The notes: generated by a model not told the origin, from the sequence alone. Positions 1 through 16,926 are shown, numbered from the stretch's first letter. The stretch: DNA of 16,926 nt from Candidatus Hermodarchaeota archaeon (GCA_048885535.1 JBHLLO010000067.1:1-16926); one strand, 5' to 3'. Numbers and translations: made by a program.

Positions 1-63
1 ATTACAATCAGGAGAATCTATTTCTAAAATTTTTGCTAATTTTCCAAAAAAGGAAGTAGACAT
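1..63 (-). CDS. 5' end of a hypothetical protein running off the left edge (MSTSFFGKLAKILEIDSPDCN...)
   Basis: Manual translation: ATG at 63 followed by 20 more open codons to the window edge, divergent from the MFS gene. Too short to assign a family. Confidence 0.45.
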   Translation of the reverse strand, partial: MSTSFFGKLAKILEIDSPDCN

Positions 64-153
64 TTTTTTATAAAGGAAATTTAAGAAAAAATTCAAGAAC
101 CATTCATTATTTTAATTTTTTATATTTTAATCTATGTTTTTGAAGGAAGTAAA

Positions 154-1437
154 TTGGGATTAAATAATATTAAGAAAAGCATAACAAAGACATTTCTAGA
201 ACTAACCTCTTTTCAAATGTTGGCAATGTTCAGAAGAGGCTTATTTTACACTTATTTATCAATGTATATGAGAAATTTTTTGTTACTTCCTATGACTATA
301 GTTTCACTTTATGCAACTTTCCCCATGTTAATGAGTGTATTCTTCCAAAATGTAGTATGGGGACCTATTAGTGATAAATTTCAGAAACGGAGAACATTGA
401 TAATCTTAGGAGAAATTTTAGCTGGAATCGGAACAATTATCGTTTGGTTTATTCATTCTGGATTCAATAATTTTCTTTTTGCAGGTTGGGTGATTATCAT
501 CGGTTTAACTTGTATCGAAGCCTTTTGGTCAATGTCAAACATTGGTTGGAGTGCTCTTATAAGTGATATTTATCCATCAAAGGATAGAAGCCGAATTATG
601 GGTCAATTAACTAGTTTTGGAGGGCTTGGTAGAATAATTGGAGTACTTATAGGAGGTTATCTTTATGATAATGGTTTCGGTTTCAGAAATGGATCCCTAT
701 TTTTTATAGCTTCATTTGTAATGTTTATATCGACTTTACCTATGTTTTGGGCTCCTGAAGGGGGAATTAATAATTCAATTGTGGATGAACAAAAAGAAGA
801 TATGATAAATGAGAATAAAGCAAACACCAAATTCAAGCGTATATTCGCCGTATTTATAATCTCTTTAGTTTTCATTAATTTCGGCAGAAATTCAATAGCT
901 ACAACATATAGTCCATTCCTTTCTTTATCTTCAGGTTTTGATCTTGATCCTGTTATAATAGGTTATATTGCAAATACACGCTCAATAGCAGTTATAATCA
1001 TTGGATTTTGTGCCGCATTTTTAAGTAGAAAATTAGGACATTCCAAAACATTAATTTTTGGGATCTTTTTAGCAATTGCAGCTTTAATTATCACTGCTTT
1101 AACATCGAGCGTATTTTTAATCTTTGTTGGTAGTTTTTTTATTGGAGCAGGTGAAGTAATAATTTATGCTTCTTCTTATACAATTGCATCGAATTTGATT
1201 CCAGAAAGAATACGAGCTAAACTATTTGGAGTTTATAATGCTACTTTTTTCCTTTCTTGGGGATTACCCTCCACAATTCTATTGGCACCTCTTATAGATA
1301 TACTTACACCTAGTGTAGGACAAAATTTTGCCTATCAAGTTTCATTTATTGTAGCAGCAATAATTACTGGATTAGGACTTTTAATATTTACTCTATTAGA
1401 AATCTGGATAAAAATTAAAAAAATTAAAAAAAAATAA
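154..1437 (+). CDS. Major facilitator superfamily permease
   Basis: 427 aa with about 12 hydrophobic segments. MFS motif A-like sequences WGPISDKFQKRR and LSRKLGHSK, plus SDIYPSKDRSRIMG and NLIPERIRAKLFG loop motifs. TTG start; substrate unknown. Confidence 0.9.
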   Translation: MGLNNIKKSITKTFLELTSFQMLAMFRRGLFYTYLSMYMRNFLLLPMTIVSLYATFPMLMSVFFQNVVWGPISDKFQKRRTLIILGEILAGIGTIIVWFIHSGFNNFLFAGWVIIIGLTCIEAFWSMSNIGWSALISDIYPSKDRSRIMGQLTSFGGLGRIIGVLIGGYLYDNGFGFRNGSLFFIASFVMFISTLPMFWAPEGGINNSIVDEQKEDMINENKANTKFKRIFAVFIISLVFINFGRNSIATTYSPFLSLSSGFDLDPVIIGYIANTRSIAVIIIGFCAAFLSRKLGHSKTLIFGIFLAIAALIITALTSSVFLIFVGSFFIGAGEVIIYASSYTIASNLIPERIRAKLFGVYNATFFLSWGLPSTILLAPLIDILTPSVGQNFAYQVSFIVAAIITGLGLLIFTLLEIWIKIKKIKKK

Positions 1438-1442
1438 AAATT
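1410..1442 (-). terminator. Putative U-rich archaeal terminator for copA, overlapping the Lys-rich 3' end of the convergent MFS gene
   Basis: After the copA TGA the minus strand reads AATTTTTATTTTTTTTTAATTTTTTTAATTTTT. The two convergent stop codons are only 5 bp apart. Confidence 0.45.
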
Positions 1443-4400
1443 TCAATCAACTAGATTCATGGGTTTTCCATGATGTTCAGGAATGGGTTGTGAACCACAG
1501 GAGCTACCCATCCAACATACTAATTGATTGCCTTCTTTATGCATAGGCTTACTACAATGCATTGGGATTTCTTGTTCAAATCCACACTCTTCACATACTA
1601 ATTTTCCCATTTTCTTATTTTCCTCCTTTAATTCTTTAATATTACCTTCAACGTGAGGGTTATTATTATTTTCTTTATTATAGATATATTTTTCTGGATT
1701 TTTTTTAAATTCTGTTAAGCAAGATTGATTACAAAAATAATATTTTTGACCTAAGTATTCATAATCAGTCCAATCTTCAGGTTTTCCTTGCATTCCACAT
1801 ACAGGATCAGTTACTAATTTTTCCTCTGAAATGGTTTTGTGCATCAATTTTGGATCAATATTTTCATAGGTCTTATACTTTTCAGGATCTCGTTTGAATT
1901 CCGCTTCGCAATTTGGATTACAAAAATAAAAACTCTCACCTTTATACTTATACTCAATTGCTTTACTAGGAACGACTTCCATGCCACATATTGGGTCAAT
2001 TGCTTTTTCTTCAAGTAATAACTTTTCTTCTCTCAACTGTTGCTCTGTTTTTGGCTCAAACCTCTTTAAAAACAGTGCATTAGTCACGACTGACACTGAA
2101 CTTGTAGCCATAAAGATTGCTGCAAGAAATGGAGGCAAAAAAAATCCTGTAATATAATATAGTACACCAGCAGCTATTGGAATACCAATTATATTATAAA
2201 TAAACGCCCAAAAAAGATTTGTAATCATCTTTTTATAAGTTTTTTTAGACAATTTAATTGCTGATACAACATTCCTCAAATCTCCCCTCATTAATACGAT
2301 GTCTGCTGTTTCAATCGCAACATCTGTGCCAGAACCAACCGCAATACCAACATTTGCCTGAGCTAAAGCAGGAGCGTCATTGATTCCATCTCCAACCATT
2401 CCTACTATTTTATCCTTTGAAGATTCTTGCAGATTCTTAATAGTCAACGCTTTCTCGTTAGGAAGTACTTCGGCCAAAATGTGCTCCTCATCAATATTTA
2501 ATTCATTACCAATAATTAAAGCAGTTTGCTTGTTGTCTCCTGTAAGCATATATATTTCTAACCCCATTTCTCTTAAAAGATCAAGAGCATAAGGTGCTTG
2601 ATCCTTTATTCTATCAGAGACTCCAATTATTCCCTTTACTTCTTTATCAATACTTATAAGAATAGTTGTTCTTCCTAATTGCTGAAAATGTTCAAATTTC
2701 TCAGAATATTCATTGAATTCAATATTGTTTTCAAATAATAATTTAGCATTTCCAATCATTACTTCTCGATTTTTTATAGTTGCAATGATTCCTTTCCCAG
2801 GAACCGCGTCAAACTCTCCTGGTGATTCTAGCTTTAAACCTCTTTGATTAGCTTCTTCAATAATCGCTAATCCAAGAGGATGTTCAGAGCCCATTTCAGC
2901 ACTGCCAGCATAAAATAGGAGATCCTTTTCATTAAGGCCTTCTCCTTTTAGATTCTCTTCTGTGAATATCCCAGAAACTTTTGGCTTCCCAATTGTTAAG
3001 GTTCCTGTTTTATCAAAAACGATTGTATTAATGTTATTGATGGATTCTAAAGAGTCACCTCCTTTAATCAACAAACCATTCTCAGCACCTTTTCCAGTGC
3101 CAACCATAACTGCAGTTGGAATTGCTAAACCTAATGCACATGGACAAGATATAACAACTATTGAAGTAAATACTAGTAATGACAATTCAAGACCAATTTG
3201 AGCTATAAAATACCAATATAATGATGAGATAATTGCGATTAATACAACTATAGGTACAAAGTAGTTGCTAACTTTATCTGCAAGTTGTTGTTTAGCAGCT
3301 TTTCTACTTTGAGCTTGTTTTACAAATTCAATTATTTGGAATAATAATGTATCTCGTCCAATTTTTTCTGTTTTTATATGGATTAAACCCGTTTGATTTA
3401 CAGTTGCTCCAATAACTTCATCATCTATAACTTTTTTCACATATTTACTCTCTCCGGTTATCATAGATTCGTCAACTTTAGTTTTACCTTTGATAACTTT
3501 ACCATCAACTGGAATTTTCTCTCCAGGTCTTACGATCAAAACGTCTCCAACCTCAATTTCCTCAATCGGAATTTCTATTTCTATTCCATCTTTAAGAAGA
3601 GTGGCAACCTTAGGTTGTAGCCCTATTAATTTTTTAATTGCTTCTGAGGTTTGACCTTTGGTTTTATGTTCAAAATATTTGCCTATAAGTAAAAACGTTA
3701 ATATCATGCTCATAGCTTCATAAAACGGTTTTCCTTCTATGAAAAATGTAGTTAATATTGAATAGACTAAAGCAGTAGTTGTACCTAAAGCTACTAATAC
3801 ATCCATATTTGCTGATTTATTTCTAAGTGATTTATAAGCTCCAATTAAAAAGAAAGAGCCTGCTATTGAAAAATTACCTGATGCTAAAAAAAATAGAACC
3901 AAATTTCTTATAAATGATTCTGGAACAAACCAACTAATTGGAGTAATTATAACCATGAAAATCATTGAAGATATAAGAATTCTCAAGCGATAACGCATTT
4001 CTTTTTTATGCTGTTCTATTTCTTTATCCATTACACCAGCGGATTTTTCTATATTATAGCCCAGTTTCTTTATTTTGGAGTACAGTTCATTTTCTCCGAT
4101 TTCAGCTTCATTGAATTCGATAAAGAGTTTAGATGCCGTAAAGTTTCCTCGTATATCATAAACTCCTTTGATTTCTTTAGCTCGATCGACCATATCGTTA
4201 AAATGACTTTCACTCACTGAGTCCTTAACAATTAAATCTATTTTAGATAACGATGCTTTATAGCCTAGATCCCTAATTGCCTTATTAAAATCATAATAAT
4301 TTGTAGTGTTAGAATCATATTCAACAGTAGCTTCCTCACTTGCAAAGTTAACCACTGAACTATTAACACCTTCTAAATTTTTCAATTTAGTTTCAATTTT

Positions 4401-4463
4401 TAATGCACACGATGCACAAGTCATTCCACTAAGCTTAATTTTTACTTTTTCTTGAGATTCCAA
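1443..4463 (-). CDS. copA: Cu(I)-translocating P1B-type ATPase with two N-terminal HMA folds, two C-terminal YHS/TRASH domains and a Cys/His-rich tail
   Basis: Motifs GMTCASC (HMA), [38 protein letters not shown]...P and MATSS, which are P1B-1 signatures. YHS domains DPICGM..YFCNPNC and DPVCGM..YFCNQSC. GGGTGA lies 6 nt before the TTG start. Confidence 0.95.
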
Positions 4464-4667
4464 CTAAATTCACCCATTAAGGAATGTCAATAATAAAAGA
4501 ATCGAATAGAACTATTATAAATAATGATTATAAATCTAAAATAAAATTTCTAAATTGCATATAATTTAAGAAATTATTCCTCAAATTGTATTTAAAATAT
4601 TAATCTTGAAATATTGTTTACGAAAATTAGAATATTTTATTTTTTAGAACATTGTTTTAGCAAATTT

Positions 4668-5060
4668 TCAAGATTGTTTATTTTTCTTCAGTTTCCTATA
4701 GTTTTCAATAGCATCATGTAAAGCATCAGCAGCTAGATTACTACAGTGTAATTTTATTGGAGGTAATCCATCTAATGAACTAGCTACATCGTCTCTAGTT
4801 ATCTTAATAGCCTCATCTAGGGTTTTTCCTTTCGCTAATTCTGTGATCATGGAGGAGGTAGCTATTGCAGCAGCACATCCAAAAGTTTGAAAAGATATAT
4901 CCTCTAAGATTTCTTTTCCACCTTCTTCTTTTACTTTAATATAAATATACATCAAATCACCACAGACGGGATTCCCGTGTTTTCCAATTGCATCAGCATC
5001 CTTCATTTCTCCCATATTTCGAGGATTTCTGAAATGATCCAATACTTTTTCTGAATAGAT
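4668..5060 (-). CDS. iscU: Fe-S cluster scaffold IscU/NifU-N (130 aa if started at ATC 5060; the track starts it at TTG 5042)
   Basis: GNPVCGD, FGCAAAIA and LPPIKLHCSNLA carry the three conserved Cys. The in-frame upstream sequence ATC TAT TCA GAA AAA GTA TTG GAT restores the family N-terminus (M)YSEKVLDHF. AAGGTGA at 5073-5067. Confidence 0.93.
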   Translation of the reverse strand: MYSEKVLDHFRNPRNMGEMKDADAIGKHGNPVCGDLMYIYIKVKEEGGKEILEDISFQTFGCAAAIATSSMITELAKGKTLDEAIKITRDDVASSLDGLPPIKLHCSNLAADALHDAIENYRKLKKNKQS

Positions 5061-5114
5061 TCTTAATCACCTTCTTCTAATTATGAATTATCAAATCTAC
5101 CTTTTAATGATTTT

Positions 5115-7490
5115 CTAGGAATTAATTTGTTCATTTAGTATCGAGAGTTTTCTTTTTTTAGGGAGAGATACTCTCTCAACCCCTAGCTCTTTTACATATT
5201 CAGCTACTTCGACTAAATTCTTAGCAGCTTGATGAAAAAAACATACATGTTTTGGTTCAAGATTCTTTATCATTTCTGTTAATTGATTCTTATCAGCATG
5301 CAGTTTTATCTTAAGAGAAGGAACAAAGGTATTGATCAGTAATGATCTAAATGGTACTTTCCATGTTTCTGAGAAAACAATCTCATTACTTCCATTAATT
5401 AAAGCCTCACCAGGTTTTTCATTTACAGATCCCGCCAAAAATACTAAATTATGAGGGTTGCGTCCAATTATATTTATAATGTTCCTAATAATTCCATAAG
5501 AAAGATCGGGAGGATGGGAAATAATAATATTATTTTTATCTCTTAAAAAATCTAAATCTTCAAGATCAAACCATCTAAATTTGATACTATTAAAGGGGTT
5601 TGCTTTTTCACGAATCAAGTTAGAGATAGGTCCGTATATATATTCATATCTATGATTAATGACTTGAATATTTTTTCGAATCATCATATCAACATAAATA
5701 TTCGGGCGTTTCTTGAAATTTCTTCTTAACTGTAATTTTCTAAAATATCTCCAAAAAATTAGCATAAAAGTTATTGCCAAACTAGAAGGATCTGCCCCAA
5801 TTAACACACTGTCCTCATATTCTGCTTTTTGTTCTAAAAACAGAATAAGGCTATGAAACTGATCAGATAAATTTCCAAAGTCTTCTCGAGCACTAGTTCC
5901 ATCAATTAATAAGTAATCAATAGGTCGAGAAATTTGTCCTAAAAATCTTTTTGTGCCTGCAAATGGTGTAATATCATAGTAAGTATAATCGCCAGTATAT
6001 AAAAATCGAAAATCTTTTACTTTCGCTAAAAACATTAAAGCTCCTGGCATATGACCCCCATGATAAAATGAGAGATAGCATTCTTTATTATTAAATTTTA
6101 ATTTTGTACCATTTTCCACATAAATTACATTTCTGATGATATTTCTATAATCCTCTTCTTCAATTTCATCATGAAACTCTTGTTTTAAAAAGTTAGAATC
6201 TCTAAGTAAATATAAATCTAGAGTAATTCTCGAACATAAAATTGGTACATCAGGATAACGTTTAATTAGCTCCTTTAAGCCAGATACATGATCATAATGA
6301 CTATGAGAAAGATAAATAGCATCAATTCTGGATTCATCAAAATTTTCAATGCTATTTTGTTGATCCTTTTCTATTTGTTCATCCACAAGATTTTCGAAAC
6401 TGTTATTGTTTTCAATAGAATCTTTAATGGAATTTTCAGACATAAAAACTTGATTTTCTACTGTTTTTTGGATTTCTCCTTTTATCAAATTTTGATAATT
6501 TTTTAGGTAAAATTCAATATATCTTAGATCTCCTTCAATTTCTTCCTTTTCATTAGGCTCTGTTAATCCACAGTCCAACAAAATATTTAATTTTCCCAGA
6601 CCCAAAATATGACAATTATGATTTGGTTTAAGTACAATTGGATAAATTGTTATTCGTATATTTTCTGAATCATCAGATCCATCTACAAGAGAAATATTAT
6701 TAAAATAAGTCTCATCATATCTTTTTTCGATTCGATCAATAGCTATAGATATTTCACTTTTACCTACTGGAACTCCAGTTATATAAAAGTACCAACCATA
6801 TCTTTTTACAAGTTCTTCAAGGTTTTCATACATTATATCTCCAATAAGAGATTTAAGGACGATAACTCTCTCTTCTTGATAATAAATTATTTTTTTTATA
6901 GATTTTTTCTCTTTAACGGGAATTTTTTCATTGTGAGGAAAAAAGTCATTTAGAACTTCTATTATTGGTAATTGGATTACATTTTCTGATTTTAAGAGTT
7001 TTTTATAAAAAAAATATTCTTTTGTATTATAAAGAGAACGCATATTACACTTTTCTTCGAGAATTATAGAATTATTATCGTAGATGTATGTATCAGTGCT
7101 AATCGTTTTTTCCTCTTTTTTGATTCCTTTTTTTTTTTGTTCTTTTTTCTTCTTTTCTAGCTTTTCAACATAGAAAAACCAACCATACATCTGTACTAAT
7201 TTATCTCGATTATAAATTATATCTTTTCCTGATTTAGTGATGATTATAATGATACGATCAGCGTGAGAGTAAATAATTTTCGTAATAGAATTTTTGGTTT
7301 TCTTAGAAATTAAATTATTTTTTAAGAAGAGGTGTTCAATAACTTCCTTTATTGCTTTTTGAGGAATCTTTTTTTGTTTTAGCAATTTTATTTTTTCTTT
7401 ATATGATTTTATTTTAAAAGAAGAAGGCAGCTTGTCTTTTTCTTGTAGTTTAATAGTTCTATCTAAAAATTTAAATTCCTCACTAGGCAT
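5115..7490 (-). CDS. Metallo-beta-lactamase/beta-CASP family nuclease, divergent aCPSF-like, with a duplicated N-terminal domain
   Basis: Motifs LLDCG (I), SHSHYDH (II, nt 6305-6288), GHMPGA (III), YTGDY (IV), IDGT (A), LHAD (B) and FFHQ (C). About 270-aa Lys-rich N-terminal extension containing two copies of a unit ending YGW(F/Y)FY. Confidence 0.8.
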   Translation of the reverse strand: MPSEEFKFLDRTIKLQEKDKLPSSFKIKSYKEKIKLLKQKKIPQKAIKEVIEHLFLKNNLISKKTKNSITKIIYSHADRIIIIITKSGKDIIYNRDKLVQMYGWFFYVEKLEKKKKEQKKKGIKKEEKTISTDTYIYDNNSIILEEKCNMRSLYNTKEYFFYKKLLKSENVIQLPIIEVLNDFFPHNEKIPVKEKKSIKKIIYYQEERVIVLKSLIGDIMYENLEELVKRYGWYFYITGVPVGKSEISIAIDRIEKRYDETYFNNISLVDGSDDSENIRITIYPIVLKPNHNCHILGLGKLNILLDCGLTEPNEKEEIEGDLRYIEFYLKNYQNLIKGEIQKTVENQVFMSENSIKDSIENNNSFENLVDEQIEKDQQNSIENFDESRIDAIYLSHSHYDHVSGLKELIKRYPDVPILCSRITLDLYLLRDSNFLKQEFHDEIEEEDYRNIIRNVIYVENGTKLKFNNKECYLSFYHGGHMPGALMFLAKVKDFRFLYTGDYTYYDITPFAGTKRFLGQISRPIDYLLIDGTSAREDFGNLSDQFHSLILFLEQKAEYEDSVLIGADPSSLAITFMLIFWRYFRKLQLRRNFKKRPNIYVDMMIRKNIQVINHRYEYIYGPISNLIREKANPFNSIKFRWFDLEDLDFLRDKNNIIISHPPDLSYGIIRNIINIIGRNPHNLVFLAGSVNEKPGEALINGSNEIVFSETWKVPFRSLLINTFVPSLKIKLHADKNQLTEMIKNLEPKHVCFFHQAAKNLVEVAEYVKELGVERVSLPKKRKLSILNEQINS

Positions 7491-7622
7491 TGTTTAATTG
7501 AATTTATCGTTAAAAAAAATAATTTCGATTTAGTGAAACTGAGATTAATCTTTTATTCAAGAAGAGACAAATTTAAAATGAAAAATTTTATCCAATACTA
7601 CATTTACTTTGGAATAATATAA

Positions 7623-7775
7623 TTAAGTTAAATCATCGTAATCATCCCAGTCTTCCTCTTCATCCTCATCTTCCCATTCCTCTTCATCTTCATCCTCATC
7701 CCAGTCTTCCTCTTCATCCTCATCTTCATCCCAATCTTCCTCTTCATCCTTTCCCAAATTTGTTGGATTGTTCAT
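7623..7775 (-). CDS. Unannotated 50-aa acidic Trp-repeat peptide, copy 1: MNNPTNLGKDEEEDWDEDEDEEEDWDEDEDEEEWEDEDEEEDWDDYDDLT
   Basis: Manual translation from ATG 7775 to TAA 7623; 34/50 residues are D/E. SD-like AGAGCTGA 5 nt upstream, TATA box upstream, and a paralogue at 11718-11849. Confidence 0.85.
   Translation of the reverse strand: MNNPTNLGKDEEEDWDEDEDEEEDWDEDEDEEEWEDEDEEEDWDDYDDLT
7642..7750. repeat. Imperfect 27-30 bp coding tandem repeats within acidic peptide 1
   Basis: tcatcccagtcttcctcttcatcctcatcttc occurs identically at 7642-7673 and 7696-7727. A third partial copy at 7727-7750 differs by a synonymous GAC/GAT change. Confidence 0.9.
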
Positions 7776-7818
7776 ATTTGTCAGCTCTAAATTACTTTTA
7801 AAATAATTTATTTATATT

Positions 7819-7865
7819 TTCAAATACCAAAAGAAATAAAAATCATTTATAAATGTTTCCAATTT
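7819..7865 (-). promoter_or_regulatory. Archaeal BRE/TATA promoter of acidic peptide 1 (47-bp duplicated element, copy 1)
   Basis: Minus strand AAATTGGAAACA-TTTATAAA-TGATTTTTATTTCTTTTGGTATTTGAA, with the TATA box at 7853-7846. 45/47 identical to 11907-11953. Confidence 0.75.
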
Positions 7866-8014
7866 AATCGAGAATTAATATAAATATATACGTTTTAGTC
7901 ATTCTCATTCTAAAGGAATAAACATTTGTTGAGTGGGTTCTCAATTTACAATAATATAGTAATTCCTATTGACAATTTCGATTTTAATGAAATCCTGATT
8001 AATAAGCCTTAGAA

Positions 8015-9472
8015 TTATTTAATTATTATACTTCTTACTCTTGCTATTATTCTACTAATTCTCGAGGTTTCAACCTTTTTCGATGTGAATTTATGAATTA
8101 CATAGAGTATAACTAGTATAGAAAAAATACTTAGAAGCATCAGAATTCCTATGAAGACCTGATACATTAATATATAGTACAGAGATACAATTAATAATTG
8201 AAAATTTGTCGTAAAAAACCCTAATTTAAAGAATTTTTTCATACTAATTGGACGTTTATTTTGTTCAGCAATATTAGCAACAAGTATATTATCACCCATT
8301 GGAGTTAAATTATCACCCCAATTTGCACCCAAAGCCAAACTATAAAATGGTTGATTTATATTTCCAATAGAAGGGATTTTTGGCATGTTGTCTATAACAG
8401 GAATTAATACTTTAGTGATAGGGATATTATCGATATTACTGCTTAGATATCCAGAAAACCATATGATAATTAAAATTTGATTTAATGGATCTCCTCCTGT
8501 TAAACTTGAAATCAAGGACCCCAGTAAATCTAATATTCCTGTATATTCTAAAGCTCCAGAGATAATAAAGATTCCGAGAAGATAAAGTAGTAATTCAAAA
8601 TCAATCTTTCTAATTATTTCTTTTGCATTTAATCTGCTAGAAATTATCAATATTAAAGCCACTGTAAGAGCCACAATATCAATTGAAATAAAAGTTGGAG
8701 GGACAATAATGAAAAGAATAAGAGTAATCACTAAAGCGAATGCAGATTTATACAAAAGAATTCTATTTTGTACGAAATTCCAGATATTGATTTCTTTTAA
8801 AATTTCAAATCCAGCTGTGGGTGTTTCCAAATCTTTTTTATAAAGAAAAATAAAAAAGAGCAAAGTTAAAGGAAATGTTAATAGTGAAATTACCCCAACA
8901 TTCAAGAAAAAATCTATAAATGAAATTTTTGCATAACTCGTAATTAGAATATTAGGAATTGAGGAGATGGAAAAAAAAGTTCCTCCAATATTTACTAAGA
9001 TTGCTTGAGTGAGGATATATGGAGAGGGGTTTATATTTAAGATTCGAGAAACTGTAATTATCAGGGGAATTAATATGATAACCGTTAATATATTGTTTAA
9101 AATCGAAGAAAGGATAACTGTTATAACTGAAAAAATAATTAGAATATAAATTGGTCTCTCTCCAGTTAGTTTTATTAAACTTATAGATATAAATTGAAAT
9201 AATCCTGCTTCATGAGCGATTTGAACAATTATCATCATACTTAATATCAGGATAAGAGAATGCAAATTAACAAAATTATCTCCTCCTGGAGGCGGTGAAC
9301 CAAATAAAAATTCTACTATTAGTTGAAAACCTAAATTTTCAATGAAAACTAAAGTGAAAAAAGCGATTAATGCTCCTAATAAAGCGGCTATTGCTCTGTT
9401 CAACTTATTTGTTAAGATTAAAAGAACTACGCCTATAAAGCAACCTAATATAATGATATTAGTTATCCACAT
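8015..9472 (-). CDS. ArsB/NhaD (ion transporter superfamily, SLC13/CitMHS-like) permease
   Basis: 485-aa polytopic membrane protein with paired IT-superfamily motifs SSILNNILTV / SSNIDNIP and NIGGTFFSISSIPN / ANWGDNLTPMG. Confidence 0.85.
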   Translation of the reverse strand: MWITNIIILGCFIGVVLLILTNKLNRAIAALLGALIAFFTLVFIENLGFQLIVEFLFGSPPPGGDNFVNLHSLILILSMMIIVQIAHEAGLFQFISISLIKLTGERPIYILIIFSVITVILSSILNNILTVIILIPLIITVSRILNINPSPYILTQAILVNIGGTFFSISSIPNILITSYAKISFIDFFLNVGVISLLTFPLTLLFFIFLYKKDLETPTAGFEILKEINIWNFVQNRILLYKSAFALVITLILFIIVPPTFISIDIVALTVALILIISSRLNAKEIIRKIDFELLLYLLGIFIISGALEYTGILDLLGSLISSLTGGDPLNQILIIIWFSGYLSSNIDNIPITKVLIPVIDNMPKIPSIGNINQPFYSLALGANWGDNLTPMGDNILVANIAEQNKRPISMKKFFKLGFFTTNFQLLIVSLYYILMYQVFIGILMLLSIFSILVILYVIHKFTSKKVETSRISRIIARVRSIIIK

Positions 9473-9576
9473 TATAAATTTCCGTTTATAATTAATTTAA
9501 TTATCGAATTAAAGAATAATTGAAGATTAATGAATGAAGAATTTAAATATATTTTCATTTAAAATAGAAAAATTAA

Positions 9577-10209
9577 TTAATGTACAATTTCCTTTACTTT
9601 TTTCTTAAGAGTTTCAATTTGATTGCTGATTTCTTCGATCTGTGCTTTAATTTTCAAATATTCTTGATTATTTTCATGTAGTTTTTTAAAGATTTTTTTT
9701 GTCTCCTCTTCAGAAGCCGTACTTGTGGAATCCTTTAGCTTTTCATTTAAAATGTCAATTTCAGTTTGAAATTTTTGAAGTTCAGTATTTAATTTTTTTA
9801 AATCTTCTTCATTAGCTAGTATTTCTTGGAATAATATTTCATTTACATCCATATCCATGATATCTTCGATTCTTTTTAGGTATCTTCTGATAGCACTTAT
9901 TTTCAATTCTTTATCTTCTTCTTTCTTAAAAAATAATGCTATATTACTATCCTCTCCAAGCTTTAATATTATCGAGGACATATCTTCTGTTTCGAAAATA
10001 AGTTTTTTATATTCTTCAGCTTCTATTTTACAAAGTTCATATAACTTTTGCATATGATGTAATGCTTGAGCTAAATTTTCACCCAATTTTGGTATATTTA
10101 TTTCTGACCCAAAGGTTGTTTGAAAAATAGTTCCATTATTATAAAACATTACAATATGGATTACTTCTGGTAAGGCACTTTTTATTCGATTAAAATTTTT
10201 GAAAACTAT
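9577..10209 (-). CDS. Roadblock/LC7-like domain plus C-terminal coiled coil (210 aa if started at ATA 10209; the track starts it at ATG 10149)
   Basis: The frame stays open upstream of 10149 to give (M)VFKNFNRIKSALPEVIHIVMFYNNGTIFQTTF, a helix plus beta-hairpin pattern typical of Roadblock/MglB. Heptad-rich E/K/L C-terminal half. AAGGTGA at 10223-10217. The fold call is from pattern recognition only. Confidence 0.6.
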   Translation of the reverse strand: MVFKNFNRIKSALPEVIHIVMFYNNGTIFQTTFGSEINIPKLGENLAQALHHMQKLYELCKIEAEEYKKLIFETEDMSSIILKLGEDSNIALFFKKEEDKELKISAIRRYLKRIEDIMDMDVNEILFQEILANEEDLKKLNTELQKFQTEIDILNEKLKDSTSTASEEETKKIFKKLHENNQEYLKIKAQIEEISNQIETLKKKVKEIVH

Positions 10210-10258
10210 TTTTTAATCACCTTATATGTACAGTATTACTATAGCAAGTTAGATTTTA

Positions 10259-10702
10259 TCACTTTTCCTTATAGAAAGAGGCTTTTTTTAAAATATCTGT
10301 TAGTTCATTAATGGAATAGCCTTTATTTTCTAATCCTAATATCACATTTGTGAATCCAAGGGCACTAATAAGGTCTTTCTGATTTTCTTTTGATAATTCG
10401 ATACTAATCTCTGATGGTAAAGATATTTCACGATATACGATCTCATTAAGTTCTAAAAATCTAGGGAAAATAAACTTTTCTACTTTTTCACTAAATTTAG
10501 AAGATATTGAAGGAGAAACTGACATTAAATCTATTGCCTCTACAAATACGCTTATTTGTTGTTTTTTTACCTTTATAAGTCCGTATTCTTTCCCTTTTTT
10601 CTTGTGTTCGCTTTTTATAAAAATAGTGTCCCCTTTGAGTAAATTAAATTTGTATTCCTTGATTTCATTCATAATCACTTTGAAGTTAAACGGATATTTC
10701 AA
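10259..10702 (-). CDS. Hypothetical soluble protein
   Basis: 147-aa ORF co-oriented with its neighbours; no motif recognised. The start may instead be ATG at 10672. Confidence 0.7.
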   Translation of the reverse strand: MKYPFNFKVIMNEIKEYKFNLLKGDTIFIKSEHKKKGKEYGLIKVKKQQISVFVEAIDLMSVSPSISSKFSEKVEKFIFPRFLELNEIVYREISLPSEISIELSKENQKDLISALGFTNVILGLENKGYSINELTDILKKASFYKEK

Positions 10703-10744
10703 TTTTATTTGAAGATAATTCTTAATTATTTAATTGAGACTTAT

Positions 10745-10921
10745 TTATAATTTTAAACTTAAGCCCAAAAGAAAGATTAGAAGTAATAAGAACAGAAATC
10801 CCATTATAAAAAGTAAAAATTCATTCTCAGCTGATCGATTTTTCAATTGCTCAATGATTAGCTTTATTAATAAAACTGTTAAAATAAAAAATACTCCAAT
10901 AAACAAAAGAATTAAAAGAAT
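10745..10921 (-). CDS. Unannotated 58-aa two-TM membrane protein: (M)LLILLFIGVFFILTVLLIKLIIEQLKNRSAENEFLLFIMGFLFLLLLIFLLGLSLKL
   Basis: Manual translation: two hydrophobic stretches separated by a polar loop. It fills the gap between mobA and the 147-aa ORF in the same orientation. AGGGGTAA lies 6 nt before ATT 10921; alternative start TTG 10906. Confidence 0.7.
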   Translation of the reverse strand: MLLILLFIGVFFILTVLLIKLIIEQLKNRSAENEFLLFIMGFLFLLLLIFLLGLSLKL

Positions 10922-10942
10922 TGAAGATTACCCCTAATATAA

Positions 10943-11614
10943 TTACTCTTGATATAGTTTTGTTAATTTGAGTAGATCTATTGGACCTTTAATATTAAGT
11001 AAACTTAATAAATTTTTATCTAATGGTTGTAATTTCTCTTCGACAGAAATATAATTAATTTTCCAACTTTTATCGATCAAATTAAGTAATCCATAATTTT
11101 CAGTCAAAAGGATCTCTTTTGCTTTCTGAAAGCCTTTTTCTACTGGATATATGGCAAAATAAGGTTCTAAAAAACCATTCTTCCATCTTGGAATTAAACA
11201 TTCATAATCTACAGATTGCTTTACCATAAAATCTATTATTTCAGGTTTAATTATCGGCATATCGCAAGATAATACAAATGCTTTTTCAAAATTTTGGCGA
11301 TGTAATTCCTTAAATCCTGAATAAATGCCTAACATTGGTCGATAGATTTTAGGATGTTTAAAAATCTCACGATCATCAACAATAAAGCTAACTTCTCTTG
11401 GAAAATCGATTTCCTTACGATATTTAAAAATTTGTTCATCAGAATGAGCAACTAAGAATATATGTTGATCGAATTTAGACAATATTTCAATTTGGTGTAA
11501 TATTAGTGGCTTTCCAAATAATTCAATTACAGCTTTTTCAGTACCAAAACGAGTACTTTTCCCTCCAATAAGGATAAGGATAGCCAAATATTTTGGATCA
11601 TCTAATTTTGGCAT
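10943..11614 (-). CDS. mobA: Molybdenum cofactor guanylyltransferase (MobA-like NTP transferase)
   Basis: ILIGGKSTRFGTEKA nucleotide-binding loop, LSCDMP, LEPYFAIY and a C-terminal LNI..P.DL motif. Confidence 0.85.
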   Translation of the reverse strand: MPKLDDPKYLAILILIGGKSTRFGTEKAVIELFGKPLILHQIEILSKFDQHIFLVAHSDEQIFKYRKEIDFPREVSFIVDDREIFKHPKIYRPMLGIYSGFKELHRQNFEKAFVLSCDMPIIKPEIIDFMVKQSVDYECLIPRWKNGFLEPYFAIYPVEKGFQKAKEILLTENYGLLNLIDKSWKINYISVEEKLQPLDKNLLSLLNIKGPIDLLKLTKLYQE

Positions 11615-11717
11615 GTAATATCAGAATTCATATTGAAATTAAACTTTTATTCAAAAAATAATCCCATTTAAAAAAATCCTAATTTGATAAATTTTCTACC
11701 AATTTTAGATTAGCTTA

Positions 11718-11849
11718 TTAATCATCATCAAAATCGTCAAAATCTTCATCTTCATCCCAATCTTCCTCATCGTCAAAATCTTCATCTTCATCCCAGTCTT
11801 CCTCATCGTCATCCCAATCCTCATCTTCATCTTTTCCTAAATTATTCAT
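11718..11849 (-). CDS. Unannotated 43-aa acidic Trp/Phe-repeat peptide, copy 2: MNNLGKDEDEDWDDDEEDWDEDEDFDDEEDWDEDEDFDDFDDD
   Basis: Manual translation from ATG 11849 to tandem TAA TAA; 31/43 residues are D/E. SD-like GGAGCTGA 5 nt upstream. Shares the N-terminus MNN..LGKDE.EDWD with copy 1. Confidence 0.85.
   Translation of the reverse strand: MNNLGKDEDEDWDDDEEDWDEDEDFDDEEDWDEDEDFDDFDDD
11733..11810. repeat. 36-bp coding tandem repeat (about 2.2 copies) encoding EEDWDEDEDFDD
   Basis: 11733-11768 and 11769-11804 differ at one base, a synonymous GAT/GAC change. Confidence 0.9.
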
Positions 11850-11906
11850 ATTTCTCAGCTCCAATTTCGATTATTTTCAATATTAATTTAATATTATTGT
11901 TATATA

Positions 11907-11953
11907 TTCAAATACCAAAAGAAATAAAAATCATATATAAATGTTACCAATTT
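11907..11953 (-). promoter_or_regulatory. Archaeal BRE/TATA promoter of acidic peptide 2 (47-bp duplicated element, copy 2)
   Basis: Minus strand AAATTGGTAACA-TTTATATA-TGATTTTTATTTCTTTTGGTATTTGAA. Two mismatches versus 7819-7865; one falls in the W position of TTTATAWA. Confidence 0.75.
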
Positions 11954-12381
11954 GTTGGATAATTAATTATTGAAATTTGAGATTTTACTTGATAGTTGTA
12001 AATTTAGTAAAAAAGTAATAAATGCTTTATTCTGGTTTTATTTAATTAAACCTATATTAAGTGTGAGTTTAAGTTAAAACAATTAAATAAACACTACTAA
12101 TTATCGACTTTTGGAGATATTTGGGATCCAGAAATCAATTAAAGTTGTTTACTATTTAATAAGCCAAAATAAAAAATTTTAAATAATTGACATACTTCAT
12201 TTAAATCTAACATTTTACAAATTTTAAGTACTTTATAAACGTTAAGAAAAAAAGCAAATGAATAAAAATTCATCCACAGCTAATGAATTAACTATTTTTA
12301 ATGTTGATATTATTCAAAGCTTAGTTGTAAACTTTATAATAAAAACAGATCAACTAAATAAATCTAGATAAGATTATTAAA

Positions 12382-14307
12382 ATGTTAAAACAAAATAATT
12401 CAGGAATTAAAAAGTCATCTGGGACCAAAAAGGAGACCCTAAAACCCATTTGTCTTGGACCAGTTTCAAACTTAGAAGAATTTGTAAAAAAAGATTGGTG
12501 GAAAAATATCTTTAACGCTTATTACTTGAAGACCGACGGTGATGTAGTTGAGGACCAGAATATTACATCCACAGAAATAGATATATTTTCTAAAATTTTA
12601 GAAATTCGCCCTGAACAAAATATTTTAGATCTTTGCTGTGGGCAAGGTAGACATTCAATCGAATTAGCTAAAAGAGGGTATGAAAATGTGGAAGGGATTG
12701 ATCGATCACGATATTTGATACAAAAAGCTAAAAATACTGCTAAAAAATTTGGATTAATAGTAAAATTTCGAGAAGGAGATGCACGTAAATTAATTTATCC
12801 ACCAGATAGTTTTGATTTTATTACAATATTAGGAAATAGTTTTGGCTATTTTGAATCTATAAATGATGATTATCTAGTATTAAAAGAAACATTTCGGACA
12901 TTAAAACCATGGGGTAAAGTATTAATTGACATTACAGATGGAGAATATCTAAGGGATAATTTCCAACCACGCTCATGGGAATGGATTGATAAGAATTATT
13001 TTGTTTGCCGTGAACGTTCATTATCTTTAGATAAACAGAGGTTAATTTCTCGAGAGGTTATAAGTCATGTTAATAAAGGCGTGTTGGTAGATCAATTTTA
13101 TGCTGAAAGACTCTATTCTAAAGAAAATATTTCAAATATTTTGGAAAAAGCAGGTTTCAGCGATATTACATTTCATGGAACAATTACTCCAGATTCTCAA
13201 AGACAACAAGATTTAGGAATGATGGAAAGAAGAATAATTGTAACTGCCACTGCTAAAAAGGATTGGACAGAAACCACAAAAAAAGCATCAGCCACATTGA
13301 AGAATGTGGCAGTTATATTCGGTGATCCTAATAAACCAGATACATTAAAACCATCTACAATTTTTGATGATGATGATTTCTACACAATTGATCAATTAAA
13401 ATCCGCATTGAAACAATTAAAAGAATATAACTTTGTATATTTAAATAATCATGACACTTTAATTCATGATTTAGAGAAGTTGAGGGGAAAAGTTGATTAT
13501 ATCTTTAATTTGTGTGATGAAGGTTATTCTAATGACCCTCGGAAAGAATTACATATACCAGCACTCTTAGAAATTTTAAAATTTCAATATACTGGTTCTA
13601 ACCCTCAATGTTTAGCATTTTGTTATGATAAATCGTTAATTAGGGGTATTGCAAGGGATCTTGATATACCTGTACCAGAATCAATATTCGTAAAACCAGA
13701 AGAAAAAATCATAGACCTACCATTATATTTCCCTGCCATAGTCAAACCTAATTTTGGAGATTCTAGTTTCGGAATTACCCAAAATAGCGTAGTTGAAAAT
13801 GGTGAACAACTATTGAACGCAATAAGGGATATCAGAGATAAATTTGGATACGATAAACCAATTTTAATCGAACAATTTCTTCCTGGTAAAGATTTATCAG
13901 TAGGGATTATAGGAAATCCTCCATATGATTATATTATACTTCCGATAATAGAAGAAGATTATTCAAGCTTACCGCAAGACTTACCAAAGATATGTGGATA
14001 TGAAGCAAAATGGCTACCGGATTCTCCTTATTGGAATATTAAATCAGTTCCTGCTAAGCTTCCTGATGATGTAATCCAGATAATTGAGAACTCCTCTTTA
14101 AAGTTATTCATCCGATTGGAATGTAAAGATTATACGCGTTTTGATTGGAGGTTGGATGGTGATGGAAATCCAAAACTTTTAGAAGTAAATCCAAACCCAG
14201 GATGGTGTTGGGATGGACATCTAGCAAAGATGGCAAAGCTTGCAGGTCTTTCATATAAAGATATGTTAGCTAAAATCTTAACCTCTGCTGAAAAAAGATT
14301 TATATAG
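12382..14307 (+). CDS. Class I SAM methyltransferase fused to a D-Ala-D-Ala-ligase-like ATP-grasp amide ligase
   Basis: N-terminal half: ILDLCCGQGRH, GIDRS, GDARKL, GNSFGYF. C-terminal half: YTGS..CYDK, IVKPNFGDSSFGI, IEQFLPG, RFDWR, LEVNPNPG. Confidence 0.9.
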   Translation: MLKQNNSGIKKSSGTKKETLKPICLGPVSNLEEFVKKDWWKNIFNAYYLKTDGDVVEDQNITSTEIDIFSKILEIRPEQNILDLCCGQGRHSIELAKRGYENVEGIDRSRYLIQKAKNTAKKFGLIVKFREGDARKLIYPPDSFDFITILGNSFGYFESINDDYLVLKETFRTLKPWGKVLIDITDGEYLRDNFQPRSWEWIDKNYFVCRERSLSLDKQRLISREVISHVNKGVLVDQFYAERLYSKENISNILEKAGFSDITFHGTITPDSQRQQDLGMMERRIIVTATAKKDWTETTKKASATLKNVAVIFGDPNKPDTLKPSTIFDDDDFYTIDQLKSALKQLKEYNFVYLNNHDTLIHDLEKLRGKVDYIFNLCDEGYSNDPRKELHIPALLEILKFQYTGSNPQCLAFCYDKSLIRGIARDLDIPVPESIFVKPEEKIIDLPLYFPAIVKPNFGDSSFGITQNSVVENGEQLLNAIRDIRDKFGYDKPILIEQFLPGKDLSVGIIGNPPYDYIILPIIEEDYSSLPQDLPKICGYEAKWLPDSPYWNIKSVPAKLPDDVIQIIENSSLKLFIRLECKDYTRFDWRLDGDGNPKLLEVNPNPGWCWDGHLAKMAKLAGLSYKDMLAKILTSAEKRFI

Positions 14308-14494
14308 AAATAAAATTTGGTTGCTTGCCCTTTTTAATTTAATCTTCTCAATGCTAAAACAATACATTTATATATTCGAATTGTCTTGAAATACAAGTTT
14401 AGAAGGAAAAATTCCAACGTTTGATTGTTTAAAAATTAAACAATTCTAAATCAATTAAAATTAATTAATAAAACAAAGCAAAGTGAATAATAAC

Positions 14495-15532
14495 ATGACC
14501 GAATTAGAAGTAATCAAGAAACTTGCTACTCAAATTTTAAATTCAGATGGAATGGAAATAGTTGATCCAATTGTATTAGAAGAAATATCATTTGTCCCGA
14601 TTATCAAGCATGAAATTCCAAAAGAAGATAGAGATTATTTAACTCTTTCCGAAGCATTAGAAGTTGGAGTATGTGAAATTATAGATAAGGGTACTGAAGT
14701 ATCTCACATCCTTTTTAAAAATAATGGTGAATTTCCCATTCTCATTGAAGAGGGGGATATATTCTTAGGACAAGGAACACAAGATAGAATATCTGTAGGA
14801 ACTGTGATGGTTGAAGTCAAAGCCGTAGAAGAAATCAGTGTTAAATGTGTGCATGCCCCTCATTATCTTTCTCCAAATGCTAATTTTTCATATGGTGGAA
14901 AAGCCAGTCGTGGGATGTTATACGAGATGCGTTCACTCAAGTTCAATAGTGCCATTAAGGGTTATGGAGCTTCAGGTATAAATCAATCAAAAATATGGAA
15001 AAAAGTGAATGAGGAGATGTCAAGTGAAAAATCTGTTGAAGATCAAACTAAATATACTTCAGGTATATCTTCGAGAAGAAAAAAAGTGATGAAAAGAAGT
15101 AAGCAATTAAATTTTCCAAGAAACACTATTGGAGTTGTTGTTGTTGATTCTTTAGGAAAGATCAAAGGAGTAGAAATTCATAGATCTCCTAATAATTTCA
15201 ACGTCCGAAAAAATACAATCCTTGAATCTGTGGAAACTAATGTGAATTGGGAAGCAACTGGTAAGGGTCCATTCTCAAACGCTAAAGAAAAAGCGAAGAA
15301 ACTATTTCAGAAAATATCAAAACTCAAAAAAGGCAAGGATACGCTAAAACAAACTGAGTTGGAGGGATTAATCATCAATTCAGAAGGCCTTCAAGGAGAA
15401 GCGTTCACATCTGCCTTTTATTCAACAATGTGCCCATCATGCTATAAATCTAAACCAAGAACACAGGAATGTCCTAGTTGTGGATTTTTAGAAGAGGCAC
15501 CAGATGACTTTACTTACATGAGTCTTTTTTAA
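14495..15532 (+). CDS. ARPP-1 (DUF6569)-like domain protein with a C-terminal zinc ribbon
   Basis: YLTLSEAL, N..PILIEEGDIFLG..QDRI, VKCV and QSKIW..V resemble the ARPP-1/DUF6569 pattern (recognised from memory). CPSC..CPSCG near the C-terminus. The track's GTG at 14483 lies inside the SD-like AAGTGA, so ATG 14495 is preferred. Confidence 0.7.
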   Translation: MTELEVIKKLATQILNSDGMEIVDPIVLEEISFVPIIKHEIPKEDRDYLTLSEALEVGVCEIIDKGTEVSHILFKNNGEFPILIEEGDIFLGQGTQDRISVGTVMVEVKAVEEISVKCVHAPHYLSPNANFSYGGKASRGMLYEMRSLKFNSAIKGYGASGINQSKIWKKVNEEMSSEKSVEDQTKYTSGISSRRKKVMKRSKQLNFPRNTIGVVVVDSLGKIKGVEIHRSPNNFNVRKNTILESVETNVNWEATGKGPFSNAKEKAKKLFQKISKLKKGKDTLKQTELEGLIINSEGLQGEAFTSAFYSTMCPSCYKSKPRTQECPSCGFLEEAPDDFTYMSLF

Positions 15533-15580
15533 ATAAAGGAATTAACTAAAGTTAACTATTCTAAGTTTTTTTCCATATAT

Positions 15581-16690
15581 TCATTTAAAGAAATCTAAAA
15601 TTAGAAACACAAACTCCATTAAGAAAATAAAAGTTAATAATATCTCAACATATACAAGAAAACGCTCATTAGTATTTGTTTGAGCAACATTATAAATATT
15701 ACCAAAAGTTTCAATTCTTTGTCGAATAGATTCGCTCCATTGTTTCAATTCAAATAATTGAGCTAATTTTTTATAAATTTGAGCCAAAAAGTAGTCACCA
15801 ATAAATTTTGAGACATTTGCAATATTTTCTAAAACAAAAGTTAGATCGTAGCGTAATCTAAGTAAATTTCCTATTTTTCGGTTTAGTTTCCTACCTAAGG
15901 TCCTGCTTTTAAAATATATTTTGCGAATATCCTCTTCAACAATAGCTAAGCGTTTATCTAATAGATAATCTAAAGTTCTTAATTCAAGTAATTGATAATT
16001 AGCAATTTCTACAACTAATAAAATATCCTCATAATCGTGATTTGGATCAATGATTAATCCTCTATCGAAATCAAAAATTATTAGATCATTTTTTAAGAAA
16101 GAAAAAGTATGGCTTAAAGTAGAATCGACTTGATATCTATTAAGATTTAAATTAGGTTTTTCTCCCATTAAAAGATTTGCAAGGTAATTTTTGTTAATCT
16201 CTATAAATTCTTGGGGGTTTTCTATATCATCAAATAAACAATAAAGGACATATTTTTCTTGTTTGAAACTCTTAATCAAATAATCTTGTTCTTCAATATA
16301 ATTTTTAATTTGGTTATAGACTTTATTGAATTGAAACTCTAAAAATTGGTTAACTTTAAAATCCCCTTCATTAGTAGAAAATGAGGTTTTTCTCAGAATA
16401 TGTAAATTCTTTAATGGTATTTCTTTGAACTTAATTCTCGCAATAAGTGAAACTACACCATCTTCATACAATTTTATTTGAAGTTCGATTTCATTTATAT
16501 ATTTCGATTCTGAGTATATATCCTGAGTTAATTCTAATTTTAAAGGTTCAGGAACACTGACATAAGAAGGAGTATCTTTTGTTTTAATTGTTTGTTTATC
16601 TGGAATACCTGGAAATATCTTTTTGGCTTTATTTAGATCAATACTACGCCCTACGTCTGTTAACCTAAGAAAAATCACTTCTCCATTCAA
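15581..16690 (-). CDS. RMD1/DUF155-related protein with a single C-terminal TM helix
   Basis: DVGRSIDL, KLYEDGVVSL, EIANYQLLELRTLDYLLD, IGDYFLAQIY..L...FEL..W, and a terminal VEILLTFIFLMEF anchor. Family call is from pattern memory. TTG start. Confidence 0.6.
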   Translation of the reverse strand: MNGEVIFLRLTDVGRSIDLNKAKKIFPGIPDKQTIKTKDTPSYVSVPEPLKLELTQDIYSESKYINEIELQIKLYEDGVVSLIARIKFKEIPLKNLHILRKTSFSTNEGDFKVNQFLEFQFNKVYNQIKNYIEEQDYLIKSFKQEKYVLYCLFDDIENPQEFIEINKNYLANLLMGEKPNLNLNRYQVDSTLSHTFSFLKNDLIIFDFDRGLIIDPNHDYEDILLVVEIANYQLLELRTLDYLLDKRLAIVEEDIRKIYFKSRTLGRKLNRKIGNLLRLRYDLTFVLENIANVSKFIGDYFLAQIYKKLAQLFELKQWSESIRQRIETFGNIYNVAQTNTNERFLVYVEILLTFIFLMEFVFLILDFFK

Positions 16691-16831
16691 ATTAGTTCAA
16701 GTTCTTCTTCATTATATATATAATAAAATCTATACTTAGCATAAATTAGAATTTTTCCACAGCTTTAATTAAATAATTTTTTATTATTGATTAATTTCTA
16801 TATTTATTATTTATCTAAACAGTGATTCGCC

Positions 16832-16926
16832 ATAACTTTAGAAGATATTATCCTTTTAATAATAATTTTTAGCATTTTTGGGATTATATTAATTAGTTAT
16901 TCATCTAAAAGTATAGATTTTGTGGC
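16832..16926 (+). CDS. 5' end of a membrane protein running off the right edge ((M)TLEDIILLIIIFSIFGIILISYSSKSIDFV...)
   Basis: Open frame encoding a TM helix. AGTGA (16821-16825) lies 6 nt before ATA 16832, with an in-frame TGA immediately upstream. Divergent from the RMD1-like gene. Confidence 0.55.
   Translation, partial: MTLEDIILLIIIFSIFGIILISYSSKSIDFV

Follow-up and report, generated by a model that had tools for sequence, protein, structure and literature searches.

We identified two genes for very small, extremely acidic proteins on an archaeal contig of 16,926 nt (JBHLLO010000067.1, positions 1-16926, of assembly GCA_048885535.1, deposited as Candidatus Hermodarchaeota archaeon); this whole stretch, called the window below, is the entire contig C67 of a 3.09-Mb genome with 30% GC and 91.6% completeness. 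The two micro-genes, A and B, lie on the minus strand, and about 70% of the residues in their products are aspartate or glutamate, with tryptophan, phenylalanine or tyrosine spaced every 3-10 residues. Judged from codon-level comparison with relatives, A, B and a third paralogue on contig C57 are genuine genes under selection for intrinsically polyanionic micro-proteins, and the sequence data support their assignment to a previously undescribed small-protein family that is spread through the Asgard archaea. The function that we favour is more tentative: with a probability of roughly 0.4, the micro-protein would be a trans-acting polyanionic ligand with aromatic anchors; as a charge mimic or charge chaperone it would attach to basic surfaces of proteins. 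An initial annotation, made from the sequence alone, had tied the interest of the two genes to an Asgard host, and the host is indeed a metagenome-assembled genome (MAG) of the Promethearchaeia (Lokiarchaeia).

The micro-genes and their products

7623..7775, minus strand: micro-gene A, 50 codons plus stop; product MNNPTNLGKDEEEDWDEDEDEEEDWDEDEDEEEWEDEDEEEDWDDYDDLT
11718..11849, minus strand: micro-gene B, 43 codons plus stop; product MNNLGKDEDEDWDDDEEDWDEDEDFDDEEDWDEDEDFDDFDDD
C57:14999-15199: third paralogue, 67 aa (MANEELNDKDDEEDWDD...NDGEWDDD...DDDY), with a GGAGGT Shine-Dalgarno (SD) sequence

The open reading frames (ORFs) of A and B and their translations agree with the initial annotation. 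The 50-aa product of A starts MNNPTNLGKDEEEDW and ends DWDDYDDLT; 34 of its residues are D or E, and its aromatic residues include W15, W25, W34, W43 and Y46. That of B (43 aa) starts MNNLGKDEDEDW, ends DFDDFDDD, and has 31 D/E together with W12, W19, W31, F25, F37 and F40. The claimed aromatic punctuation is present, with spacings of 9-10 residues in A, 6-7 in B, and 3 near both C-termini. Tandem repeats within the ORFs likewise have only periods that are multiples of three, as had been noted (6, 24, 30 and 54 nt in A; 6, 9, 18 and 36 nt in B). The further claim that the closest units differ synonymously holds for B, whose two 36-nt units are one base apart (GAC/GAT, a synonymous change), and only partly for A, where the best 30-nt units have three differing bases, two of them in same-residue codons. 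Across the genome, a scan for D/E-rich frames found eight, three of which are the micro-ORFs A, B and the C57 paralogue.

Both genes had been described as unannotated, which is mostly right: none of seven micro-proteins (the window's two and five relatives) is present in a collection of 15 billion proteins, although the ESM Atlas contains one of the window's two (P0001), letter for letter, beside look-alikes that score at most 0.85 and are all unnamed. An HMMER protein search in 40 relatives recovered just the window's own two copies; in a search of 5.8 billion proteins none of the 528 word candidates reached E<=0.01; and a Pfam hmmscan of seven members at E<=10 returned no family. We found no description of such proteins in the literature, and the text or supplementary tables of a deep-sea small-protein atlas (bioRxiv 10.64898/2025.12.15.694180) could list such ORFs.

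Selection and distribution

Because searches of the HMMER type are blind to such low complexity, we searched DNA for pairs of W-D-[DE] codon triplets separated by 7-28 nt, with the reversed pattern as the control; being strict, this pattern overlooks many members. Matches were found in 52 of 151 genomes of the host order (reversed control: 0) and in 101 of 400 Asgard genomes (reversed control: 1); in the phylum of an Archaeoglobales MAG, 13 of 401 genomes matched, mostly in strings other than D/E codon runs, and the control matched 6. Among 30 loci listed for the host order, the match lies in a stand-alone small ORF in 27 and in a large protein in three. Pooling all loci of the host family gave 43 distinct ORFs (median 46 aa, range 31-74), which mostly carry an SD sequence and occupy syntenic positions, in support of the new small-protein family proposed earlier. 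At least two tryptophans are present in 42 of the 43 ORFs, and an SD sequence of at least 4 nt (GGAGG/GAGGT, 5-8 nt 5′ of the start) in 35; 32 have at least two Lys/Arg before the acidic tract, 31 end in Tyr or Phe, and 15 contain an N/D-D-G-x-aromatic motif. The C-terminal residue itself varies among the relatives (T, D, Y, F, M, N, E). Readings of the C-termini as HbYX, PIP-box, LIR or CAP-Gly EEY motifs were dropped for inconsistent spacing or position.

Selection at the protein level, which the repeat structure had suggested, is supported by the codon comparison: in the alignable orthologues the proportion of synonymous differences (pS, Nei-Gojobori) is far above that of nonsynonymous ones (pN), with pS 0.24-1.00 and pN 0.00-0.04 for five orthologues of 26-27 aa, and pS 0.23-0.70 and pN 0.07-0.17 for five of 44-45 aa, estimates that rest on 8-21 synonymous sites in low-complexity alignments. 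The reading frame is preserved across the length changes in the 43 relatives; where frameshifting indels had been named as evidence against the genes, the one indel seen is an in-frame one of 3 nt. Before the acidic tract, members of the host family have an N-terminal motif, [IL]-G-[LP]-K-K or Phi-G-P-K/R; orthologues within the genus share the form [IL]-G-[LP]-K/E-K, of which the window's LGK is a remnant. Because of this shared motif and of synteny (described below), homology is supported over convergence within the host family; across the phylum, convergence, about which the initial annotation had warned, remains an alternative.

Acidic disordered ligands with aromatic anchors are already known from eukaryotes and from LysW; what is new is the stand-alone, repeat-built, Asgard-wide micro-protein form, to which the window contributes the Lokiarchaeial branch, its distinct synteny, and a probably recent duplication of promoter and gene. 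Gene callers skip such genes, and HMMER-type searches do not see the family, so that comparative catalogues of this lineage, the closest to eukaryotes, lack a conserved, probably highly expressed class of Asgard proteins, and methods that combine pattern and synteny are required to find it.

A candidate ligand of basic proteins

The favoured reading draws on look-alike genes in other Asgard lineages. In one family, where the basic protein carries the name "hypothetical protein, Thorarchaeota", the micro-ORFs are 25-40 aa long (e.g., MVFDDEDTWDDDDEDWDDDDDWDDDDF) and have a GAGGTGA SD sequence, and 13 such loci have in common a neighbour of about 280 aa with no Pfam family, an isoelectric point (pI) of 10.2-11.1 and 51-64 Lys+Arg, which we call the basic PaaX-like protein (for example at L053, 2325-3182, an orphan annotated only as hypothetical, Thorarchaeota). 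A profile built from the 13 members found this protein in 87 of 400 Asgard genomes. When loci were chosen by the basic protein alone, an acidic-Trp micro-ORF was adjacent in 30 of 30, always divergent; in more distant families it lay beside the basic protein in 17 of 20, often co-directional (two of the three misses are near a contig end), which gives 47 of 50 for both locus sets. Since the pair is kept through rearrangement and the two proteins have opposite net charges of about 20-30, we infer that they interact directly. In an AlphaFold model of the basic protein (pLDDT 84.5, pTM 0.80), a three-helix bundle accompanies two alpha/beta units; the model's best Foldseek match is PaaX (E 4e-4, probability 0.97, but TM 0.26). 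A wide structure search with the same model was set aside as uninformative, generic three-helix bundles (Z ~12) dominating the output. Complex prediction for the basic PaaX-like protein and its neighbouring 40-aa micro-protein gave no verdict (score 0.00, without controls) and is evidence in neither direction. At one locus (L239, 421-471, minus strand) a 17-aa Lys-rich micro-ORF with an SD sequence, MPKKKKTGAKKTTKAKK, lies just 3′ of the acidic micro-ORF; the window has no such Lys-rich micro-gene.

The window's genes resemble this module, in which the micro-ORF is stand-alone, 25-75 aa, rich in D/E and Trp, preceded by an SD sequence and missed by gene callers; they differ from it in that the Lokiarchaeial members are longer, usually have an N-terminal Lys cluster, lie by MobA-like and methyltransferase/ATP-grasp (MT/ATP-grasp) genes, and are not accompanied by a detectable basic protein in host genome or family. 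Under the favoured reading, the micro-protein would be a disordered, multivalent polyanion acting in trans; its acidic tracts would mimic the charge of nucleic acids or of acidic tails, while its aromatic residues would dock into pockets of the basic partner surface, and the outcome would be a basic, probably nucleic-acid-binding, protein that is chaperoned, buffered or competitively regulated. The adjacent basic PaaX-like protein would probably be the partner in Thorarchaeota-type lineages and in other Asgard ones. The initial annotation had proposed stand-alone multivalent acidic-Trp ligands; the idea is kept as the best reading, and the strict pairing seen elsewhere between look-alike micro-genes and a very basic protein lends it indirect support.

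Several points weigh against it. The basic PaaX-like protein was found in 0 of 134 genomes of the host family by profile search, and the same profile had no match at E<=10 in the host genome (91.6% complete). The mechanism is therefore borrowed from look-alikes in other Asgard classes, which may be convergent. The neighbours in the host lineage are not notably basic (pI 7.7 for the MobA-like protein and 5.7 for MT/ATP-grasp), and the products of A and B have neither the NDG motif nor the C-terminal Tyr/Phe, both common among relatives. The sequencing runs found to carry the stretch are all DNA and none RNA, and the few synonymous sites behind the pS and pN values, given above, count here too.

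Disordered polyanions that bind to basic nucleic-acid-binding surfaces, or compete for them, are familiar from prothymosin-alpha and the acidic tails of HMGB1, SSB and PCNA. The likeness is that in one Asgard family (f16) the DW-acidic tract is fused to PCNA: seven pattern matches (L038-L041, L044, L047, L048) are the C-terminal tail of PCNA (PF00705), a protein of about 300 aa that ends ...EDWDEDEDEDEDWDEDEE and whose gene adjoins that of an RFC subunit. The window's proteins differ from prothymosin-alpha and such tails in their regular aromatic punctuation and micro-protein size, and have no detectable homology to them. An all-GTDB scan with the pattern, whose figures hold among the matches listed and give no frequencies, has at least 85 loci in larger or contig-end-cut proteins and at least 14 in small ORFs among those matches; in the bacterial matches listed, the DW-acidic tract mostly belongs to a larger protein, as a tail or a linker. 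Three of these (L090, L105 and L175, from Anaerolineae/Chloroflexota and another bacterial MAG) are LysW-type Zn-ribbon proteins with long DW-acidic tails, scoring above the cut-off of PF21344. The tail of classical LysW, EDWGE, is much shorter. From its occurrence on PCNA and on LysW-type carriers, the DW-acidic tract can be read as a reusable protein-binding tail, the Asgard micro-proteins being essentially tail-only.

A wider version of the idea seems doubtful to us, namely that the micro-proteins would form a phylum-wide Asgard class of free-standing nucleic-acid mimics, Trp-docked regulators of basic DNA/RNA-binding proteins, with the Lokiarchaeial module rewired to another partner, and would be forerunners or analogues of the acidic-aromatic motifs in DSS1, eIF3j, WASP and histone chaperones. 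If the micro-proteins are charge-mimic ligands, archaea would use a eukaryote-style mode of regulation, and the synthesisable peptides could be used to fish for basic chromatin, replication and translation factors of Asgard archaea.

Gene neighbourhood, upstream regions and the origin of copy A

The genes around the micro-genes serve as context:

10943..11614, minus strand: MobA-like NTP transferase, the gene most regularly just 3′ of the micro-gene
12382..14307, plus strand: fusion of a methyltransferase and a D-Ala-D-Ala-ligase-type ATP-grasp enzyme (MT/ATP-grasp), 641 aa, divergent neighbour of B
5115..7490, minus strand: beta-CASP/MBL protein, 791 aa, downstream of A

In the host family the gene order at B is MT/ATP-grasp (divergent), micro-gene, MobA-like gene, and a gene for an unknown 147-aa protein; the arrangement is divergent in genera g1 and g12, and in g16, g17 and g13 the micro-gene shares the strand of the MT/ATP-grasp gene and immediately precedes it. 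A micro-ORF is found upstream of the MobA-like gene in 10 of the 13 genomes with the region covered, at loci that were not chosen by the pattern. The MT/ATP-grasp gene adjoins the micro-ORF in 17 of 30 pattern-chosen loci (27 of the 30 being small ORFs); when loci were anchored on the enzyme, the count was 10 of 40, with 0 of 18 outside the host family. Across several Asgard families the enzyme keeps 60-89% identity, and 109 of 400 genomes have it at E<=1e-40. The position of copy B is the ancestral one in the host family. The beta-CASP protein is present in 111 of 134 family genomes and distantly like aCPSF1 (80.6 bits, the cut-off being 580); the first 380 residues, rich in Lys, include an internally duplicated part (...YGWFFY / ...YGWYFY). 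At loci anchored on it, a micro-ORF is directly upstream in 4 of 29; five others have one ahead of a MobA-like gene close by. In g16 and g17 (L009-L011, L013, L017), a divergent gene upstream of the micro-gene/MT-ATP-grasp pair encodes a protein of about 190 aa, ribbon-helix-helix-like (RHH-like) by eye; it has no homologue in the host genome.

The features upstream and downstream of the two ORFs are as follows:

7781..7787, minus strand: SD-like GAGCTGA of A, 5 nt 5′ of the ATG
11855..11861, minus strand: SD-like GAGCTGA of B, 5 nt 5′ of the ATG
7812..7865, minus strand: upstream block of A, with a B recognition element (BRE)/TATA-like AACATTTATAAAT and then a conserved GGTATTTGAAAATATAA about 25 nt downstream
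11900..11953, minus strand: upstream block of B, 51/54 identical to block A by alignment
7571..7590, minus strand: T-runs after the stop of A, a candidate archaeal oligo-T terminator
11651..11680, minus strand: T-runs (7 T, 6 T) after the stop of B, a candidate terminator ahead of the MobA-like gene

The GAGCTGA-N5-ATG layout that had been reported occurs in both copies, and GAGCTGA is one base off the GGAGGTGA-type SD sequence of the relatives. The conserved upstream block, likewise reported before, lies about 45-100 nt 5′ of the ATG; its 39-nt core, with up to three mismatches, occurs at just these two sites in the 3.09-Mb genome. In relatives, GAAAcATTTAAATA is placed some 90 nt ahead of the start, and a conserved cGTAaTTGAAAATAT follows after about 25 nt more; this layout, judged by eye, is seen in most of 23 readable upstream stretches (24 loci, one masked by N). 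We read the block as a putative promoter with BRE/TATA and a transcription start region, a role assigned from the archaeal consensus. The T-runs are candidate terminators; such runs are common at 30% GC.

The initial annotation had named an assembly artefact as a way in which the second copy could mislead; the copy is real, contigs of runs X2 and X4 spanning copy B together with its unique flanks. At copy A, contigs of all four runs that carry the stretch extend from either unique flank into the repeat and end at 7671-7698, as a short-word assembler would be expected to leave them. The four DNA runs all come from a single study, and since two of them may be the source sample, the independent support is weak. 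One contig of run X2 has an in-frame 3-nt deletion variant of micro-gene B, at 11796. G018, the closest relative (its MT/ATP-grasp is 89% identical), carries the orthologue of copy B, LNNEITTDLGKDEDEDW..., and lacks a micro-ORF between its CitMHS and beta-CASP genes (L296). Because of this missing counterpart and the near-identical promoters of A and B, copy A is probably a recent duplicate of copy B, promoter included.

Alternative explanations

One alternative is that the micro-protein serves as a carrier or scaffold peptide for the MT/ATP-grasp enzyme, the MobA-like NTP transferase and a C26-like hydrolase, by analogy with LysW-LysX or with the ribosomal peptides of peptide-ligating ATP-grasp enzymes. 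The 17 of 30 pattern-chosen loci at which the enzyme adjoins, in two arrangements (divergent in g1/g12; same strand in g16/g17 and g13), speak for it, as do the LysW-type Zn-ribbon carriers with the same DW-acidic tails at the three bacterial loci described above; like LysW/ArgW, the window's proteins are small and very acidic, have an acidic Trp tract, and are encoded near an ATP-grasp gene. The link is loose, however: the window's proteins contain no Cys and hence no four-Cys Zn-ribbon (PF21344, a search that does match the bacterial look-alikes), have no Pfam match, and have no fixed C-terminal Glu (T and D in the window), the C-termini of the family varying as listed above. The neighbouring ATP-grasp is of Ddl type, not RimK/LysX type, forms a fusion with a methyltransferase, and has an acidic overall pI (5.7). 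At loci found through the enzyme, micro-ORFs occur in 10 of 40 cases and in none of 18 outside the host family, despite 60-89% enzyme identity, and the paralogues A and C57 are located elsewhere. Graspetide precursors are a poor parallel too, as the acidic cores contain no Ser/Thr/Lys for ester or amide cross-links of that type. We therefore consider a carrier role unlikely.

Slightly less likely again is a cis-acting leader ORF, in which the D/E run would destabilise the ribosome as in MgtL; by responding to Mg2+ or to the state of the ribosome it would control how strongly the co-directional gene downstream of it (MobA-like, beta-CASP or MT/ATP-grasp) is expressed. N-terminal acidic runs are described as the context most prone to destabilisation, and bulky residues as counteracting it (bioRxiv 10.1101/2021.02.02.429294; PMC9718836; PMC12673854), and this may explain the Trp punctuation; the MgtL-type leader peptides likewise are very short ORFs with an acidic run right after the start, and at many loci the micro-ORF is about 90-190 nt upstream of a co-directional gene. 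Against a purely cis role, purifying selection acts on specific residues along the entire peptide, C-terminal aromatics included; the Thorarchaeota-type micro-gene is divergent from its neighbour; and the downstream genes vary between loci. Unlike MgtL-type leaders, the window's genes have their own putative promoter and a likely terminator, T-runs coming after each stop, and the MobA-like gene, with a TATA-like box of its own, lacks an SD sequence. No attenuator-like structure was found: the untranslated regions and post-stop stretches fold no better than shuffles (z -0.33 to 0.70), and Rfam has no family match within the window.

We give rather low odds to an archaeal counterpart of a eukaryotic acidic-aromatic ligand, be it DSS1/Sem1, the N-terminal acidic motif of eIF3j/Hcr1 with ABCE1, or the Arp2/3-binding A motif of WASP type. 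The WASP A motif, DSS1/Sem1 and eIF3j have a similar composition, with Trp in an acidic context, and the host genome, an Asgard one, carries four actin-family genes, two of them at E ~1e-132. DSS1/Sem1 is a small (70-90 aa), acidic, disordered protein whose Trp/Phe anchors bind the basic grooves of several partners; the window's proteins differ from it in having no C-terminal helix segment, far more D/E and a variable repeat number. A kinship to DSS1/Sem1, which the initial annotation had cited as an example, found no support: PF05160 matched nothing at E<=10, either in the hmmscan of seven members, which was silent for the eIF3j family as well, or in a six-frame search of the genome. In the WASP A motif the Trp is 2-3 residues from the C-terminus and is preceded by WH2 and C helices, whereas the last aromatic residue of the window's proteins is 4-5 from the end and WH2/C are absent. 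For ARPC2 and ARPC4, PF05856 and PF04045 had no match in the host genome, the control genomes being likewise silent. Nor is there a linkage to ABCE1 in the host genome: within about 3 kb of its ABCE1 gene (C30), no acidic micro-ORF occurs.

A non-specific polyanion with no dedicated partner, acting as a buffer of divalent cations or polyamines or as a solubility or charge shield, seems just as improbable. It would suit the extreme charge (31-34 acidic residues of 43-50), the tract length that differs among orthologues, the several paralogues per genome, and the cation transporters nearby (CitMHS, Cu-ATPase); but ions would need neither the Trp punctuation nor the N-terminal motif nor the C-terminal Tyr/Phe, and the tight pairing with one basic protein in other classes implies a specific partner. 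A chance low-complexity ORF or a purine-rich non-coding RNA, which the low complexity and the lack of significant relatives in HMMER-based searches might suggest, is essentially excluded by the strict GAN codon periodicity, pS far above pN, SD and start in 35 of 43 ORFs, a frame kept across 43 relatives of varied length, and a nearly empty reversed-pattern control.

Other features of the window and the host genome

The MT/ATP-grasp gene is often found alongside the MobA-like NTP transferase and a C26/gamma-glutamyl-hydrolase-like protein (15581-16690, minus strand), and the three may form an undescribed small-molecule pathway. The window also contains a P-type Cu-ATPase of 1006 aa (1443-4463, minus strand) with an N-terminal HMA and a C-terminal YHS/TRASH domain, adjoining an IscU-like gene. 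Acidic extensions seem common in the lineage, to judge from two other contigs of the host: C106 encodes what we take, by sequence motifs, to be a TATA-binding protein with an N-terminal acidic/aromatic extension (MSEEENDYDDLEDSEEEEYDEEEEFDY...), and C17 presumably encodes, on the same kind of grounds, ribosomal protein uS19 with an N-terminal poly-Glu extension.

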